Origin: a phage
Reading direction: 5' to 3' (one strand)
Sequence record: NC_107013.1
Length of the DNA stretch: 41,265 bases
Part shown: piece after piece, positions 1 through 41,265 of the stretch
How the letters are laid out: the number at the start of each line of letters is the position of its first letter
How positions within the stretch are numbered: position 1 is the stretch's first letter
The notes under the pieces: generated by a model
Told to the model about the DNA's origin: nothing
Seen by the model: the letters and a program-made list of their open reading frames with translations, nothing else
Databases searched by the model: none
Program-made: the position numbers and the translations under genes

Positions 1-127
1 GCGTGAAATCGCGGGCCTGGGCTTCATTATCGCTGTTCTCTGGATGCCTATCTATTCCCGCCTCTCCGGTATCGTCGCCGGAGAATACATCGCACGTCGA
101 GGAGGCCCGGATGAATGAATTATTCTG
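1..127. repeat. Terminal direct repeat: 1-127 is identical to 41139-41265 (wrap-around of a circular or terminally redundant genome); carries the 3' end of holin 1 and the start of holin 2
   Basis: Exact identity of the first 127 nt with the last 127 nt, read directly. Confidence 0.9.
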
Positions 128-967: not shown

Positions 968-996
968 TTGACTATTACCTTAGACCCTATTATATT
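968..996 (+). promoter_or_regulatory. Sigma70-like promoter (TTGACT-N17-TATATT)
   Basis: -35 and -10 hexamers with 17-bp spacer, upstream of the small-ORF cluster. Confidence 0.45.
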
Positions 997-7920: not shown

Positions 7921-8307
7921 ATGAATCTTAAAGCAACTGTCGTAGCGGGAGCATGTTTCATCATCCTGGCTTACGCACACGGCATCTACCAGTATCGCAG
8001 CGGCTGGAACGGAGGCCGGGCGAATCTCGTTTCTCAGCAACAGCAGAAAGCACAGGCTGAGTTAGCTAAGAAAACACAACGGCAGCAGCAGGATGAATCG
8101 AAGGCCGCCGCCGCTGATAACGAAGGCAAGACGAAATCAGAGGTAATCACCCGTGAAGTCGTTAAGTACATTAAAACGCCTGGCCGCAGCGTGTGCACTT
8201 TTGACCCTGAGCGCGTGCAGCTCAAGTCCCGCGCCGTCGCAAACGCCAATTCCATCCCCGGATACGACGATGATGCAGCCGCCGTGCAAACTGGCACTGC
8301 CAAGTAA
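7921..8307 (+). CDS. i-spanin (Rz-like): N-terminal TM, Gln/Ala/Lys-rich predicted helix, periplasmic Cys
   Basis: GAAAGGGG RBS; TM VVAGACFIILAYAHGIY; Rz-like architecture; contains an overlapped lipoprotein gene. Confidence 0.6.
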   Translation: MNLKATVVAGACFIILAYAHGIYQYRSGWNGGRANLVSQQQQKAQAELAKKTQRQQQDESKAAAADNEGKTKSEVITREVVKYIKTPGRSVCTFDPERVQLKSRAVANANSIPGYDDDAAAVQTGTAK

Positions 8308-8416
8308 CGACGCGGACGAGGATTTAGCTATTGACGTCCAGAACGCAGAATGTGTACGGCAACTGAGACTTAAAGTGTTCATGTTGCAGGATTACGTGAG
8401 GAATATTCTGGAATAG
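8153..8416 (+). CDS. o-spanin (Rz1-like) outer-membrane lipoprotein, overlapped with the i-spanin in the +1 frame
   Basis: GTG start with AGAGG RBS; signal peptide with lipobox LTLSAC; proline-rich mature part. Confidence 0.55.
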   Translation: MKSLSTLKRLAAACALLTLSACSSSPAPSQTPIPSPDTTMMQPPCKLALPSNDADEDLAIDVQNAECVRQLRLKVFMLQDYVRNILE

Positions 8417-16307: not shown

Positions 16308-16337
16308 TTTAAACCCCTTCATTGTTGGTGTAAGTGA

Positions 16338-16366
16338 ATAGTACCCTATTATATTGGGGTGTGCAA
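16338..16366 (-). promoter_or_regulatory. Class II promoter TTGCAC-N17-TACTAT with conserved spacer, upstream of the Imm-like gene
   Basis: 33-bp near-identity to the plus-strand promoter at 38351-38383. Confidence 0.5.
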
Positions 16367-32634: not shown

Positions 32635-32663
32635 ACTATAATAGCTAACTATTCAGGTGTCAA
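32635..32663 (-). promoter_or_regulatory. Class I early promoter TTGACA-N17-TATAGT with AATAG-N4-CTATT operator
   Basis: Core AACTATAATAGCTAACTATT identical to 34772-34791. Confidence 0.5.
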
Positions 32664-34771: not shown

Positions 34772-34801
34772 ACTATAATAGCTAACTATTCATGTTGTCA
34801 A
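34772..34801 (-). promoter_or_regulatory. Class I early promoter with AATAG-N4-CTATT operator (18-bp spacer variant)
   Basis: Core AACTATAATAGCTAACTATT identical to 32636-32655. Confidence 0.5.
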
Positions 34802-34805
34802 TGGG

Positions 34806-34834
34806 CTTTTCTAAAATAATTAATATGGTACTAT
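34806..34834 (+). promoter_or_regulatory. Extended -10 promoter (TGgTACTAT) for the XRE-family gene, divergent from the class I promoter
   Basis: TG-extended -10 with weak -35, upstream of 34866. Confidence 0.35.
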
Positions 34835-34865
34835 TCACATATCAACTGACTAAGGAGTAATTGGC

Positions 34866-38350: not shown

Positions 38351-38379
38351 TTGCACGCCCCAACATAATAGGATACTAT
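38351..38379 (+). promoter_or_regulatory. Class II promoter TTGCAC-N17-TACTAT with conserved spacer
   Basis: 33-bp near-identity with minus-strand promoter at 16338-16366. Confidence 0.5.
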
Positions 38380-38413
38380 TCACTTATCGAAACGAGACAG
38401 AGGAGTGAGGGTT

Positions 38414-39641: not shown

Positions 39642-39670
39642 TTGCACACTAAGATAGAATAAGCTACTAT
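39642..39670 (+). promoter_or_regulatory. Promoter TTGCAC-N17-TACTAT (class II-like hexamers, divergent spacer)
   Basis: Hexamers and spacing. Confidence 0.4.
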
Positions 39671-39700
39671 TCATTTACACAAGCGAGAGGAGAGACAGAG

Positions 39701-40579: not shown

Positions 40580-40872
40580 TGTCGTTAGCAACTGACATCC
40601 TGAAACGAAGCGGCCTTGCGCCGCTGTCGCCGAGAGCGAATACGCGTATACACAAGCGCCGCCGTAACGCGCTGTACCCTGAGATTCAGGCCCGACGCAA
40701 AGCTATCCGCGCCTGTGGCTTCCAGAACGGGAAGGCCGTTAATCTCGGTGAGTTCAAAACACAGGAACGTGCAGCTATAGCTAATCGGTTATTTAATTAC
40801 TGGAAATCGCTTGGATACGATGATATTCCAACGAAACCCCAGAGACGACAATACATCTGGAGACATAAATAA
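40579..40872 (+). CDS. Hypothetical basic protein (97 aa)
   Basis: AGGAG RBS; Arg/Lys-rich. Confidence 0.5.
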   Translation: MSLATDILKRSGLAPLSPRANTRIHKRRRNALYPEIQARRKAIRACGFQNGKAVNLGEFKTQERAAIANRLFNYWKSLGYDDIPTKPQRRQYIWRHK

Positions 40873-40947
40873 ACCGTTATTAGGATAATTCCTAACCGTG
40901 CTATCCTCCAGTTACTGCATACTTAATACGCACCTGGAGGATTCATC

Positions 40948-41256
40948 TTGGATAAATTTACTGAAACAGTGACAGGCTGGCTTCTCGCTGCCGCACTAGC
41001 CGGAGGGGTCATCGGCCTACGACAACATAAGTCCGTTATTTCTGGCCCTATCGACGGCTTTTGCTTCATTGCAACTGGCTTCACTTGCGCCGTATTTGGT
41101 GCGCCTCTCGCGGCTCAATGGTTCGGTATTACCGGTGAGCGTGAAATCGCGGGCCTGGGCTTCATTATCGCTGTTCTCTGGATGCCTATCTATTCCCGCC
41201 TCTCCGGTATCGTCGCCGGAGAATACATCGCACGTCGAGGAGGCCCGGATGAATGA
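40948..41256 (+). CDS. Holin (about 3 predicted TM segments), TTG start
   Basis: GGAGG RBS 7 nt before TTG; three hydrophobic segments; immediately upstream of holin 2 and endolysin across the wrap-around. Confidence 0.6.
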   Translation: MDKFTETVTGWLLAAALAGGVIGLRQHKSVISGPIDGFCFIATGFTCAVFGAPLAAQWFGITGEREIAGLGFIIAVLWMPIYSRLSGIVAGEYIARRGGPDE

Positions 41257-41265
41257 ATTATTCTG

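Follow-up and report, generated by a model that had tools for sequence, protein, structure and literature searches.

The leader of the lysis cassette in a Kagunavirus genome contains an RNA stem-loop that buries the whole Shine-Dalgarno sequence (SD) of the first lysis gene, holin 1, and that probably acts as a brake on premature host-cell lysis, new for these phages. RNA containing both 40903-40911 and 40934-40942 folds into this stem-loop at about -15 kcal/mol. The stretch of DNA analysed (the window; NC_107013.1, 41,265 nucleotides) is the complete genome of this E. coli phage. The assembly is circular and its first and last 127 bp are identical, so that the lysis cassette spans the assembly junction. 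The lysis genes are ordered holin 1, holin 2 and endolysin behind a 75-nt operon leader (40873-40947), and the cassette comes last in a block of small, co-oriented genes. The gene directly upstream encodes a 97-aa protein without a match in Pfam or NCBIfam scans and has its stop codon at 40870-40872, 31 nt before the stem. A preliminary description made from the sequence had reported a two-holin and endolysin cassette at 40873-41256; the cassette is present, although holin 2 and the endolysin lie mostly outside that range, and the sequence features described are all there, with coordinates 1-2 nt off. The features are as follows:

40880-40895, + strand: inverted repeat TTAGGA-TAAT-TCCTAA, in the box GGATAAWTCC(T/G)AA at the left edge of the conserved leader
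40899-40907, + strand: putative lysis promoter, extended -10-like TGCTATCCT (TGnTAnnnT), overlapping the 5' arm, with a predicted start at about A40914
40903-40911, + strand: 5' arm ATCCTCCAG, the anti-SD (from RNA folding and relatives)
40912-40933, + strand: 22-nt loop TTACTGCATACTTAATACGCAC, with an in-frame TAA (40924-40926), the upstream limit of the holin 1 frame
40934-40942, + strand: 3' arm CTGGAGGAT, with the SD GGAGG at 40936-40940 (from folding and SD pairing)
40948-41256, + strand: holin 1 (102 aa, TTG start), with three hydrophobic stretches before a charged C-terminal tail
111-383, + strand: holin 2 (its start is 41249 on the duplicated end), ATG start, 90 aa, phrog_2508
361-849, + strand: endolysin, GTG start, 162 aa, phage lysozyme (PF00959, E = 6e-27)
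914-945, + strand: terminator-like hairpin ATCCCGGC/GCCGGGAT with an 8-T run, of intrinsic terminator form, at the end of the lysis transcription unit
968-1024, + strand: next transcription unit with promoter-like TTGACT-17-TATATT (968-996), a parallel case outside the lysis cassette
7921-8416, + strand: spanin pair, Rz-like 7921-8307 and an overlapping lipoprotein-type ORF ending at 8416 (Bas74 annotation, PMC9825357)

The hairpin consists of 9 bp between ATCCTCCAG and CTGGAGGAT around the 22-nt loop and encloses the entire GGAGG. The preliminary description had paired CCTCCAG with the SD; this pairing is real and longer than claimed, while CCTCCAG lies at 40905-40911 and not at 40903-40909. 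Folding of 40895-40955, the check it had proposed, gave -16.7 kcal/mol (z = -2.8), a value reached by 2 of 200 shuffled sequences, and the isolated hairpin has -14.7 kcal/mol. With a pairing probability of 0.9999, the holin 1 SD ranks first among the 82 candidate starts of the whole genome (SD, start codon and an ORF of at least 45 aa). The holin 1 leader has the form of an SD-sequestering operator, with the SD inside a stable stem. The suspected masking of the ribosome-binding site is thus borne out: it is strong by calculation, and differing stems enclose the SD in seven lineages. No Rfam 15 family matched 40700-41100 with E <= 1, nothing in the whole window reached a gathering score, and neither a description of the hairpin nor a start-site map was found in the literature on Kagunavirus and related genera.

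Among 40 relatives, no part of the lysis region varies less than the leader: nucleotide diversity in the 40 Kagunavirus loci is 0.005-0.06 in 40878-40982, whereas the holin 1 coding sequence has 0.1-0.26 and the endolysin 0.2-0.35. In Kagunavirus 98.8% of the stem cells are paired, and the arms of the relatives carry only C->U and A->G changes that keep G.U pairs, the single broken pair belonging to a defunct copy in phage VT223. Two-sided changes are absent within the genus, since the 3' arm must also serve as an SD, and there are two one-sided changes to G.U. The loop is nearly invariant in most Kagunavirus; its changes in L025 and L029 lengthen the stem (to 14 consecutive pairs and 17 in all in L029), and in the metagenomic relative L043 it is replaced by 9 unrelated nt while the stem is kept. 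A mini-hairpin further downstream, UUACUG-AAA-CAGUGA at 40958-40972, has one pair broken in L043. The stem-loop in Kagunavirus is thermodynamically strong and probably maintained by selection.

Outside the genus, the SD or a G-run of the holin-1 homologue lies in the 3' arm of a hairpin in Jerseyvirus, the L056-type phages, Dhillonvirus, Klebsiella phage VLCpiS11a and Edwardsiella phage eiAU-183. The calculated stabilities are -14 to -18 kcal/mol in Jerseyvirus and the L056-type; the hairpins of Dhillonvirus, VLCpiS11a and eiAU-183 were folded only within a longer leader. Inner stem pairs differ with pairing kept between Jerseyvirus and the L056-type, and also among the L056-type loci (L056, L058 and L060); the lineages were compared separately. 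Three more distant members of the family were also inspected, of which L063 masks its SD and L061 and L062 are ambiguous, and a search of viral contigs for distant relatives with protein P0019 gave no match. The lineages are not independent trials, because ancestry may be shared. Every related phage group examined has its own version of the stem-loop, which is therefore probably a genuine brake on premature lysis, not described before.

The same comparisons bear on the idea that the leader has no regulatory role, being a recombination linker or a sequence of recent spread in which GGAGG and CCTCC are complementary by chance. The leader is indeed a mosaic boundary, with two unrelated genes adjoining it upstream; in VT223 it is joined to unrelated sequence, and two-sided covariation is lacking in Kagunavirus. 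However, unlike stems enclose the SD in all seven lineages, the L043 stem outlived the replacement of its loop, the arm substitutions preserve pairing everywhere except in the defunct VT223 copy, and the SD pairing is the highest of the 82 in the genome, so that we regard an inert leader as very improbable.

A promoter-like element overlaps the 5' arm. The pattern TGnTAnnnT is present in 41 of 41 Kagunavirus loci, where the n after TG is polymorphic (G in 21, C in 20) and TG, TA and T are fixed. It recurs at the same relative place in the L043-type, Jerseyvirus, the L056-type, Dhillonvirus (TGATATAGT) and Eiauvirus (TGTTACCAT), and the Klebsiella phage has TATACT without the TG; the -10-like element is thus found in six of seven lineages. 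It lies 4-9 nt 5' of the first paired base in 75 of 75 loci of five lineages, again with n variable and TG, TA and T constant, and in eiAU-183. The predicted start site drops 6-11 nt of the 5' arm and lowers the calculated cost of opening the SD from 6-15 to 0.6-5.8 kcal/mol. Unmasking in the window is the smallest of all lineages (8.6 vs 5.8 kcal/mol, with 40 nt of coding sequence), and structure in the RNA 40914-40995 does not exceed that of shuffled sequence (z = +0.4). As a -10 hexamer TATCCT is weak, TGNTANNNT is as common in the genome as chance predicts (71 copies against 71.5 expected), and the motif was picked out post hoc, after inspection of the data. The TA...T of the hexamer is partly inside the stem, and pairing alone could therefore keep these bases. 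From its position and conservation, we infer that TGCTATCCT at 40899-40907 may act as the lysis promoter.

Three other promoter candidates were rejected. A sigma-70 two-hexamer scan returned only the weak GAGACA-18-GATAAT at 40860-40889, whose -35 is not conserved over the upstream gene types and whose GATAAT is lost in L043. Visual inspection of the 22-nt loop gave no acceptable -10 hexamer, and L043 has other sequence in its place. The genome paper of phage fBC-Eco01 predicted a repeated 20-mer as the phage promoter consensus; there are six copies in the window and none in this leader.

The reading that best explains these data as a whole, to which we give an even chance, is that the leader stem-loop silences holin 1 on read-through RNA. 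As the cassette ends a block of co-oriented small genes, RNA entering from these genes would carry both arms and be translationally silent. The hairpin would quite likely block 30S binding, so that little or no holin 1 is made, and together with the TTG start prevent premature lysis. In sister lineages with a U-run after the hairpin, the read-in RNA would also be terminated. The true lysis mRNA would come from a weak promoter without a -35, the extended -10 TGCTATCCT overlapping the 5' arm, and start at about A40914 in the loop; it would lack the 5' arm and have its SD open. Holin 2 and the endolysin would use their own G-rich SDs (GGAGG and GGAGGG), with translation perhaps coupled to holin 1. 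More tentatively, we suggest that a promoter-inside-terminator switch is common to the enterobacterial siphophages of Kagunavirus, Jerseyvirus, Dhillonvirus and Eiauvirus, in which 40-50 nt would do three jobs: silence or terminate read-in RNA, provide a -10 in the 5' arm, and supply SD and spacer from the 3' arm and U-run.

Alternatively, the lysis mRNA itself could hold the full hairpin, which with the TTG would lower initiation so that hairpin stability sets lysis time. The masking and conservation of the SD would be expected here too, and the stabilities vary fairly little although the stems are unrelated (most lie between -14 and -16 kcal/mol, the extremes reaching -22), as tuning of stability would predict. 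De Smit and van Duin are said to have formulated a thermodynamic rule tying stem stability to initiation, by which a -15 kcal/mol stem over the SD would bring initiation down by many orders of magnitude; with the whole SD covered, enough holin would therefore be hard to make. The precedent of lambda, in which lysis time is set by the rate of holin translation (bioRxiv 10.1101/2025.05.14.654169), speaks for such a throttle, as does the -10-like GATAAT at 40884-40889, which would start RNA just 5' of the stem. Against this, neither GATAAT nor its -35 is retained in L043 or throughout the different upstream gene types, the U-run after the hairpin would terminate much of the RNA in Jerseyvirus, Dhillonvirus, Eiauvirus and the Klebsiella phage, and the fixed TGnTA...T is left unexplained. 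We consider a throttle on the lysis mRNA rather unlikely and prefer insulation from read-in RNA, with a confidence that falls just short of even.

The hairpin could also be mainly a terminator or attenuator of the upstream block, with the SD placed in its 3' arm through genome compactness. The form of an intrinsic terminator, with a U-run after the stem, is seen in Jerseyvirus (13 bp and U7), Dhillonvirus (12 bp and U6), eiAU-183, VLCpiS11a and L043 (UUAUUUU), and the long L029 stem would suit such a function. In the window, however, the loop has 22 nt, the tail is UUCAUCUU, and the hairpin is absent from the terminator scan; the L056-type tail UCCUCUCACC has no U-tract and its SD is still enclosed. 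Enclosure of the SD, and not the U-run, is common to all lineages. A terminator as the main function appears improbable; the idea does not conflict with the insulator model, which already covers most of it.

Other ways of unlocking the SD were rejected. RNase III needs a stem longer than 9 bp, and the window stem is too short for such processing. An RNA thermometer would have to melt at 37-42 C, for which -15 kcal/mol is far too stable, and the upstream stop codon, at 31 nt from the stem, is too distant for a terminating ribosome to couple the two genes. The 22-nt loop occurs once in the genome even with up to 3 mismatches allowed, and the insulator model leaves its near-invariance in most Kagunavirus unexplained.

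Holin 1 starts at the TTG at 40948-40950, which is the first possible start after the in-frame TAA, 7 nt downstream of the GGAGG. Its only family match is to the PHROG family phrog_2359 (E = 5e-29), labelled 'holin' by annotation, and it has no Pfam or NCBIfam match at E <= 0.1. The family is small, with 12 representative proteins (one per 50%-identity cluster, E <= 0.001) in a library of 1.8 billion proteins. The hydropathy profile shows stretches at about 7-25, 35-55 and 65-83, followed by the tail EYIARRGGPDE, and this small membrane protein with a charged tail near an endolysin gene has the form of a class I-like holin. It is encoded two genes 5' of the PF00959 lysozyme, and directly 5' of it in L043. 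A lambda-type dual start was rejected because the next in-frame start, a GTG at codon 8 (40969) preceded by ACTGAAACA, has no SD. The TTG is invariant in Kagunavirus; the Jerseyvirus homologues have GTG as their start codon, and those of the L056-type, Dhillonvirus, the Klebsiella phage and Eiauvirus use ATG.

Holin 2 matches phrog_2508 'holin' (E = 2e-33) and gave no match in Pfam and NCBIfam scans. Its ATG (41249-41251) and the holin 1 TGA (41254-41256) share the 8-nt overlap ATGAATGA (41249-41256). The junction ATGA[A/C]TGA and an upstream G-rich SD are found in 40 of 40 relatives, the SD being GGAGG in 38 and GGGGG or GGAGA in the other two. The endolysin overlaps holin 2 by 23 nt, has GGAGGG at 348-353 and keeps its GTG start in the relatives; its N-terminus, MSRNISDNGLHFTAAFEGFRG, has no hydrophobic (SAR) segment of the kind expected in a SAR-endolysin and pinholin system. 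Translation of the two downstream genes could be coupled to holin 1, given these overlapping junctions. On the gene side of the preliminary description, the GGAGG before the holin 1 TTG, the overlap of the holin 2 start with the holin 1 stop, the GTG of the endolysin, and overlaps that would permit coupling and are conserved in relatives were all confirmed. Its emphasis on weak starts stands for the TTG within Kagunavirus and fails as a general rule, since sister lineages use GTG or ATG.

The pair of holin 1 and holin 2 is conserved in Kagunavirus, Jerseyvirus, Dhillonvirus, Eiauvirus and more distant contigs, and homologues of holin 2 are present in 639 phage records. In L043 and L044, both metagenomic relatives, holin 1 leads straight to the endolysin with no holin 2 at the locus (about 5 kb of those genomes were read, and a copy elsewhere is possible), an arrangement found in no GenBank phage. 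This suggests that holin 2 is accessory, no more, and that holin 1 can apparently work alone. Holin 2, as a separate second gene, is a candidate antiholin, an idea already published: the genome announcement of Schulenberg, a coliphage similar to Guernseyvirinae, names the equivalent genes a holin/antiholin pair (PMC6763661).

The inverted repeat upstream has its arms at 40880-40885 (TTAGGA) and 40890-40895 (TCCTAA), 1 nt from where it was first placed. It is in the sequence but not maintained as an RNA hairpin, being perfect in only 5 of 41 Kagunavirus loci, with a central A.C mismatch in 17 of 41; we estimate that a 6-bp repeat arises by chance in about 1 in 10 such 75-nt regions. With up to 3 mismatches allowed, it still occurs only once in the genome. 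A related box is present at variable distance in Jerseyvirus, L056-type and Klebsiella phage leaders, and in some of these the box contains the stop codon of the upstream gene.

A terminator-like hairpin closes the lysis cassette and a new promoter-like site follows it. In this next unit, the first gene, which starts at 1030, has the SD GGAGUAGA (1017-1024), whose pairing partner is the anti-SD UUUACUCC (995-1002); by predicted pairing probability this SD ranks second of the 82 in the genome. The promoter-like site is canonical in form, and the spacer between -10 and +1 contains the anti-SD for the first gene, which speaks for the idea of a promoter in the arm of the holin 1 hairpin; RNA from the predicted +1 at about 1003 would lack the 5' arm. 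The arrangement is conserved in part among relatives. The spanin pair completes the lysis system but sits in the head gene module.

In T4 gene e, read-in RNA, its ribosome-binding site buried in a stem-loop, is not translated, and a later promoter inside the stem-loop region gives a translatable RNA without the 5' arm. Such early-transcript hairpins were reportedly described for T4 gene e, gene 49 and I-TevI by McPheeters et al. in 1986 and later. The window resembles gene e in that a lysis gene follows earlier genes, with a -10-like element on the 5' arm and a start predicted in the loop. It differs in that the masked gene is a holin and not the endolysin, and in that the motif is sigma-70 extended -10-like and not a T4 late promoter. 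In addition, the hairpins of sister lineages also have terminator form, with 3' arm and U-run supplying SD and spacer.

In lambda S, the upstream stem-loop sdi controls access to the SD (bioRxiv 10.1101/2025.05.14.654169), and here too a stem-loop just 5' of a class I-type holin would govern ribosome access. Lambda, however, partitions two starts of one gene (the S107 antiholin and the S105 holin), whereas holin 1 has one start, a longer stem that encloses the whole SD, and an antiholin candidate encoded by a separate gene. Start regions of small toxic membrane proteins are locked in RNA structure in the MS2 lysis gene and in type I toxin mRNAs such as hok and tisB, and synthesis there awaits a specific unlocking event. 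These are unlocked by ribosome termination and reinitiation or by RNA processing, and we see no sign of either here. Two adjacent small membrane-protein genes 5' of a soluble endolysin, as in the window, are known from P1 (LydA/LydB, PMC9025707), mycobacteriophage F1 (LysF1a/LysF1b, PMC13056207) and, by annotation, Schulenberg (PMC6763661). In the window family neither holin matches Pfam or NCBIfam, and the two proteins may act as holin and antiholin or as a two-component holin.

Lysis timing is a main fitness trait of phages, and its mechanism is understood in few model phages. Kagunavirus, Jerseyvirus and Dhillonvirus are frequently isolated as therapy and biocontrol candidates against E. 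coli and Salmonella, and in the genome papers of these genera the lysis cassette appears only as a set of 'class I/II holin-like' genes. The conserved RNA element, which would decide whether the holin can be translated, offers a handle, through a few point mutations, on the means by which these phages keep lysis from coming early, and engineered phages might have their lysis time and burst size adjusted through the leader hairpin. If the switch is real, holin synthesis would depend only on when the weak promoter fires, and with a promoter inside the hairpin, unrelated siphophages would have arrived at the solution of T4 gene e and combined it with a terminator.

The first and last 127 bases of the window (1-127 and 41139-41265) are identical, which indicates a circular assembly, a real genome of 41,138 bp and features near the ends that are seen twice. 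The phage belongs to Kagunavirus (subfamily Guernseyvirinae), has the K1G/K1ind phages among its relatives and is 96.6% identical to Escherichia phage vB_EcoS_fKuEco01 over the query region. The lysis cassette is split by the assembly junction, and its holin 1, holin 2, endolysin order is kept in all lineages compared. More than 100 public genomes already carry an annotated version of it.

Lysis genes and neighboring features
40948-41256, plus strand: holin 1, TTG start, 102 aa
ATG 41249 (= 111) to 383, plus strand: holin 2, 90 aa
361-849, plus strand: endolysin, GTG start, 162 aa, PF00959 phage lysozyme, without N-terminal membrane segment
914-945, plus strand: terminator-like hairpin and run of 8 T, closing the lysis unit
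968-996, plus strand: promoter-like TTGACT-17-TATATT, opening the next transcription unit
7921-8416, plus strand: spanin pair in the head module, far from the lysis cassette and in the same place in annotated relatives

Computation showed that a stable, functionally conserved hairpin encloses the Shine-Dalgarno (SD) sequence of holin 1. The 5' arm ATCCTCCAG (40903-40911) pairs with the 3' arm CTGGAGGAT (40934-40942) over 9 bp around a 22-nt loop; GGAGG (40936-40940) lies wholly inside the stem and the TTG follows 7 nt downstream. The preliminary description had proposed such a hairpin with a shorter pairing, and the sequence elements it listed are all present, with coordinates 1-2 nt off. The RNA of 40895-40955 folds at -16.7 kcal/mol (z = -2.8) and the isolated hairpin at -14.7 kcal/mol. 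SD pairing probability was scored at 82 genome sites where a start codon with an SD-like motif ahead of it begins a frame of 45 codons or more; holin 1 comes first (0.9999), holin 2 36th and the endolysin 42nd. Only the TTG can serve as the holin 1 start: a TAA within the loop (40924-40926) closes the frame upstream, and the GTG at codon 8, the next start codon in frame, lacks an SD. The hairpin probably keeps RNA that contains both arms from being translated into holin 1.

Weak starts had also been suggested for the cassette. Two of the three lysis genes do have non-ATG starts, which is only mildly unusual (about 5% by chance, calculated) given ATG in 70 of 81 genes of the annotated relative Bas74. 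The ATGA[A/C]TGA junction and the endolysin GTG are both kept in 40 related contigs, with a G-rich SD ahead (GGAGG in nearly all). The inverted repeat TTAGGA/TCCTAA (40880-85/40890-95) at the left edge of the leader did not hold up as an RNA hairpin, being perfect in just 5 of 41 Kagunavirus loci and carrying a central A.C mismatch in 17. In relatives with another upstream gene (HslV-like peptidase), that gene ends within the left half of the repeat (...LLG-stop). At the leader's left edge in Jerseyvirus, the L056-type contigs and the Klebsiella phage, a related box recurs, GGATAAWTCC(T/G)AA.

Across 40 Kagunavirus contigs from IMG/VR, scanned in 30-nt windows, the leader is the diversity minimum of the 1.5-kb lysis region (0.005-0.06 over 40878-40982; holin 1 0.1-0.26, holin 2 0.07-0.2, endolysin 0.2-0.35). 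This low diversity persists despite two unrelated upstream genes adjoining the leader; a non-functional recombination linker at this position is a minor alternative. When nine distinct leaders are aligned, 98.8% of the stem cells are paired, six pairs are invariant and two vary one-sidedly, to G.U; the sole broken pair belongs to a defunct copy of the leader carried by Salmonella phage VT223. These nine leaders gave no two-sided covariation in the stem, as expected since the 3' arm doubles as the SD. Rare loop changes extend the stem, to an outer stem of 11 bp in one contig (L025) and to 14 consecutive pairs, 17 in all (-21.6 kcal/mol), in another (L029). In the more distant metagenomic L043 (holin 1 69% identical), the loop is 9 unrelated nt and a 12-bp stem encloses GGAGG. 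We also observed that in most Kagunavirus the 22-nt loop and the opening 11-12 holin 1 codons (40908-40982) are almost invariant (0.005-0.04), synonymous sites included, for which neither SD masking nor protein coding accounts.

The holin 1 family is small, with 12 representative proteins at E <= 0.001 in an exhaustive search of a 1.8-billion-protein representative library, and includes the first "holin" of Jerseyvirus (~20% identity by profile alignment). In every lineage reached, a hairpin of its own holds the SD or a G-run in the 3' arm.

Leader hairpins in other lineages (5' arm / 3' arm; tail; start)
Jerseyvirus: AAUCUCCGAAGGU / ACUUUCGGAGAUU; U run, then AUU; GUG
L056-type: CUCCGUAUGG / CCUAUACGGAG; 11 nt; AUG
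Dhillonvirus: AGUCCCAGUGAG / CUUACUGGGACU; U6 directly against the start; AUG
Klebsiella phage VLCpiS11a: CCCCCGAAU / AUUCGGGGG; UCCUUUUUG; AUG
Edwardsiella phage eiAU-183: GGCCCUGUA / UACGGGGCC; UUUUCUU; AUG

Folded in isolation, the Kagunavirus, L043, Jerseyvirus and L056-type hairpins have calculated stabilities of -14 to -22 kcal/mol. Within the L056-type lineage, inner pairs differ in L058 and L060 with pairing retained, and one Dhillonvirus relative has a compensating C-G insertion. Among three still more distant contigs, one (L063) buries SD and start codon and two have no clear pattern. A terminator whose SD overlap is incidental is another minor alternative. Judged by the family alignment, the first holin of eiAU-183 (L081, 827-881) probably starts 54 nt upstream of the annotated position, at an ATG that restores the family N-terminus (MD...W.LLAG) and sits directly after the hairpin and U-run.

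When the leaders are aligned on the hairpin, TGnTAnnnT stands out, which has the form of an extended -10 element. In 75/75 loci of five lineages, and in eiAU-183 too, its TG precedes the first paired base by 4-9 nt; the Klebsiella phage has TATACT, with TG missing. The n position is polymorphic (Kagunavirus G 21 : C 20) and TG, TA and T are fixed. In the defunct VT223 copy, CG replaces TG.

Versions of the -10-like element
TG[C/G]TATCCT: Kagunavirus, L043
TG[T/C]TAATCT: Jerseyvirus
TG[A/C]TAA[T/C]CT: L056-type
TGATATAGT: Dhillonvirus
TGTTACCAT: Eiauvirus

The start predicted 7 nt past the hexamer falls in the loop, near A40914, and would shorten the 5' arm by 6-11 nt. By calculation, opening the SD costs 6-15 kcal/mol in read-through RNA versus 0.6-5.8 in RNA from the predicted start, and RNA 40914-40995 shows no more structure than shuffled sequences do. 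The motif was picked out after the data were seen and is as frequent in the genome as chance predicts (71 found, 71.5 expected); the hexamer lies partly within the stem, and TATCCT is a poor -10. Our literature search found no transcription start-site maps for these phages. We consider the main rival, a constitutive throttle on holin 1 as first proposed, somewhat less likely than the reading favored below.

We tentatively propose that the element insulates the lysis genes while a weak promoter in the 5' arm launches a translatable lysis mRNA inside the hairpin. Transcription from the small co-oriented upstream genes would be kept out of the lysis genes, by termination where a U-run is present and by SD masking in all lineages, and the putative promoter, which has no -35 element, would supply the translatable RNA. 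This resembles T4 gene e, gene 49 and I-TevI, whose translatable mRNA begins inside a hairpin.

The next transcription unit (968-1032) would follow the same logic as the lysis leader, with a canonical promoter match, only read-through RNA being masked. There UUUACUCC (995-1002), between TATATT and the predicted +1, pairs with the SD GGAGUAGA (1017-1024) of the gene starting at 1030, which ranks 2/82 for pairing (fold z = -2.6); RNA from +1 is unstructured. The pairing is partly conserved, with wobble pairs in L003 and L027, and is broken in L029 and VT223.

VT223 (L041, Jerseyvirus) carries at 2500-2765 the Kagunavirus leader and first 20 holin 1 codons fused to unrelated sequence as a 48-codon ORF, followed by its own Jerseyvirus leader hairpin and holin. 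The fusion marks a recombination joint within holin 1; the relic leader has lost both the TG of the -10-like element and one stem pair. In Bas74 (L045, 40332-40436), holin 2 is followed by a 34-codon ORF and then by an endolysin of another type with an ATG start; the ORF opens with the 5' part of the GTG-type endolysin and is a relic of an endolysin module swap. A near-consensus extended -10, TGCTATAGT (227-235), lies inside holin 2, ~130 nt ahead of the endolysin, which might be transcribed separately from there.

The 20-mer TGAATAGTAnCCTATTATnT, which contains the palindrome AATAG-N4-CTATT, occurs six times in the genome versus 0.01 expected by chance. Two copies lie within strong minus-strand TTGACA-N17/18-TATAGT promoters, three are followed by GTGCAAG, and that at 39654 precedes the lysis cassette by ~1.3 kb. 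In a published genome paper, such a consensus was predicted to be a phage promoter; the 20-mer looks more operator-like, common to early promoters.

Copies of TGAATAGTAnCCTATTATnT
16335-16354, plus strand
32636-32655, minus strand
34773-34792, minus strand
34818-34837, minus strand
38363-38382, minus strand
39654-39673, minus strand

Holin 2 contains a single strongly hydrophobic stretch and a second, weaker and Gly-rich one at the N-terminus; its tail is basic, and 639 phage records contain homologues. It is absent from the lysis cassette of the metagenomic contigs L043 (2394-2830) and L044 (both ~41 kb), where the endolysin SD and GTG directly follow the holin 1 stop, an arrangement found in none of the GenBank phages. 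This absence fits an accessory role, antiholin or second holin alike. In both contigs, where the loop has lost its stop codon, the holin 1 frame extends 34 codons further upstream, to an ATG. Our literature search found no experiments on this holin family. Equivalent genes of phage Schulenberg are already labelled antiholin (PMC6763661).

The proposed leader mechanism is readily testable. RNA structure is established as governing lysis-gene translation for T4 e and MS2 L. Such control is also established for lambda S (bioRxiv 10.1101/2025.05.14.654169). The SD-masking leader hairpin conserved in Kagunavirus, Jerseyvirus, Dhillonvirus and Eiauvirus appears to be new, possibly together with a promoter-in-hairpin/terminator composite in these genera.
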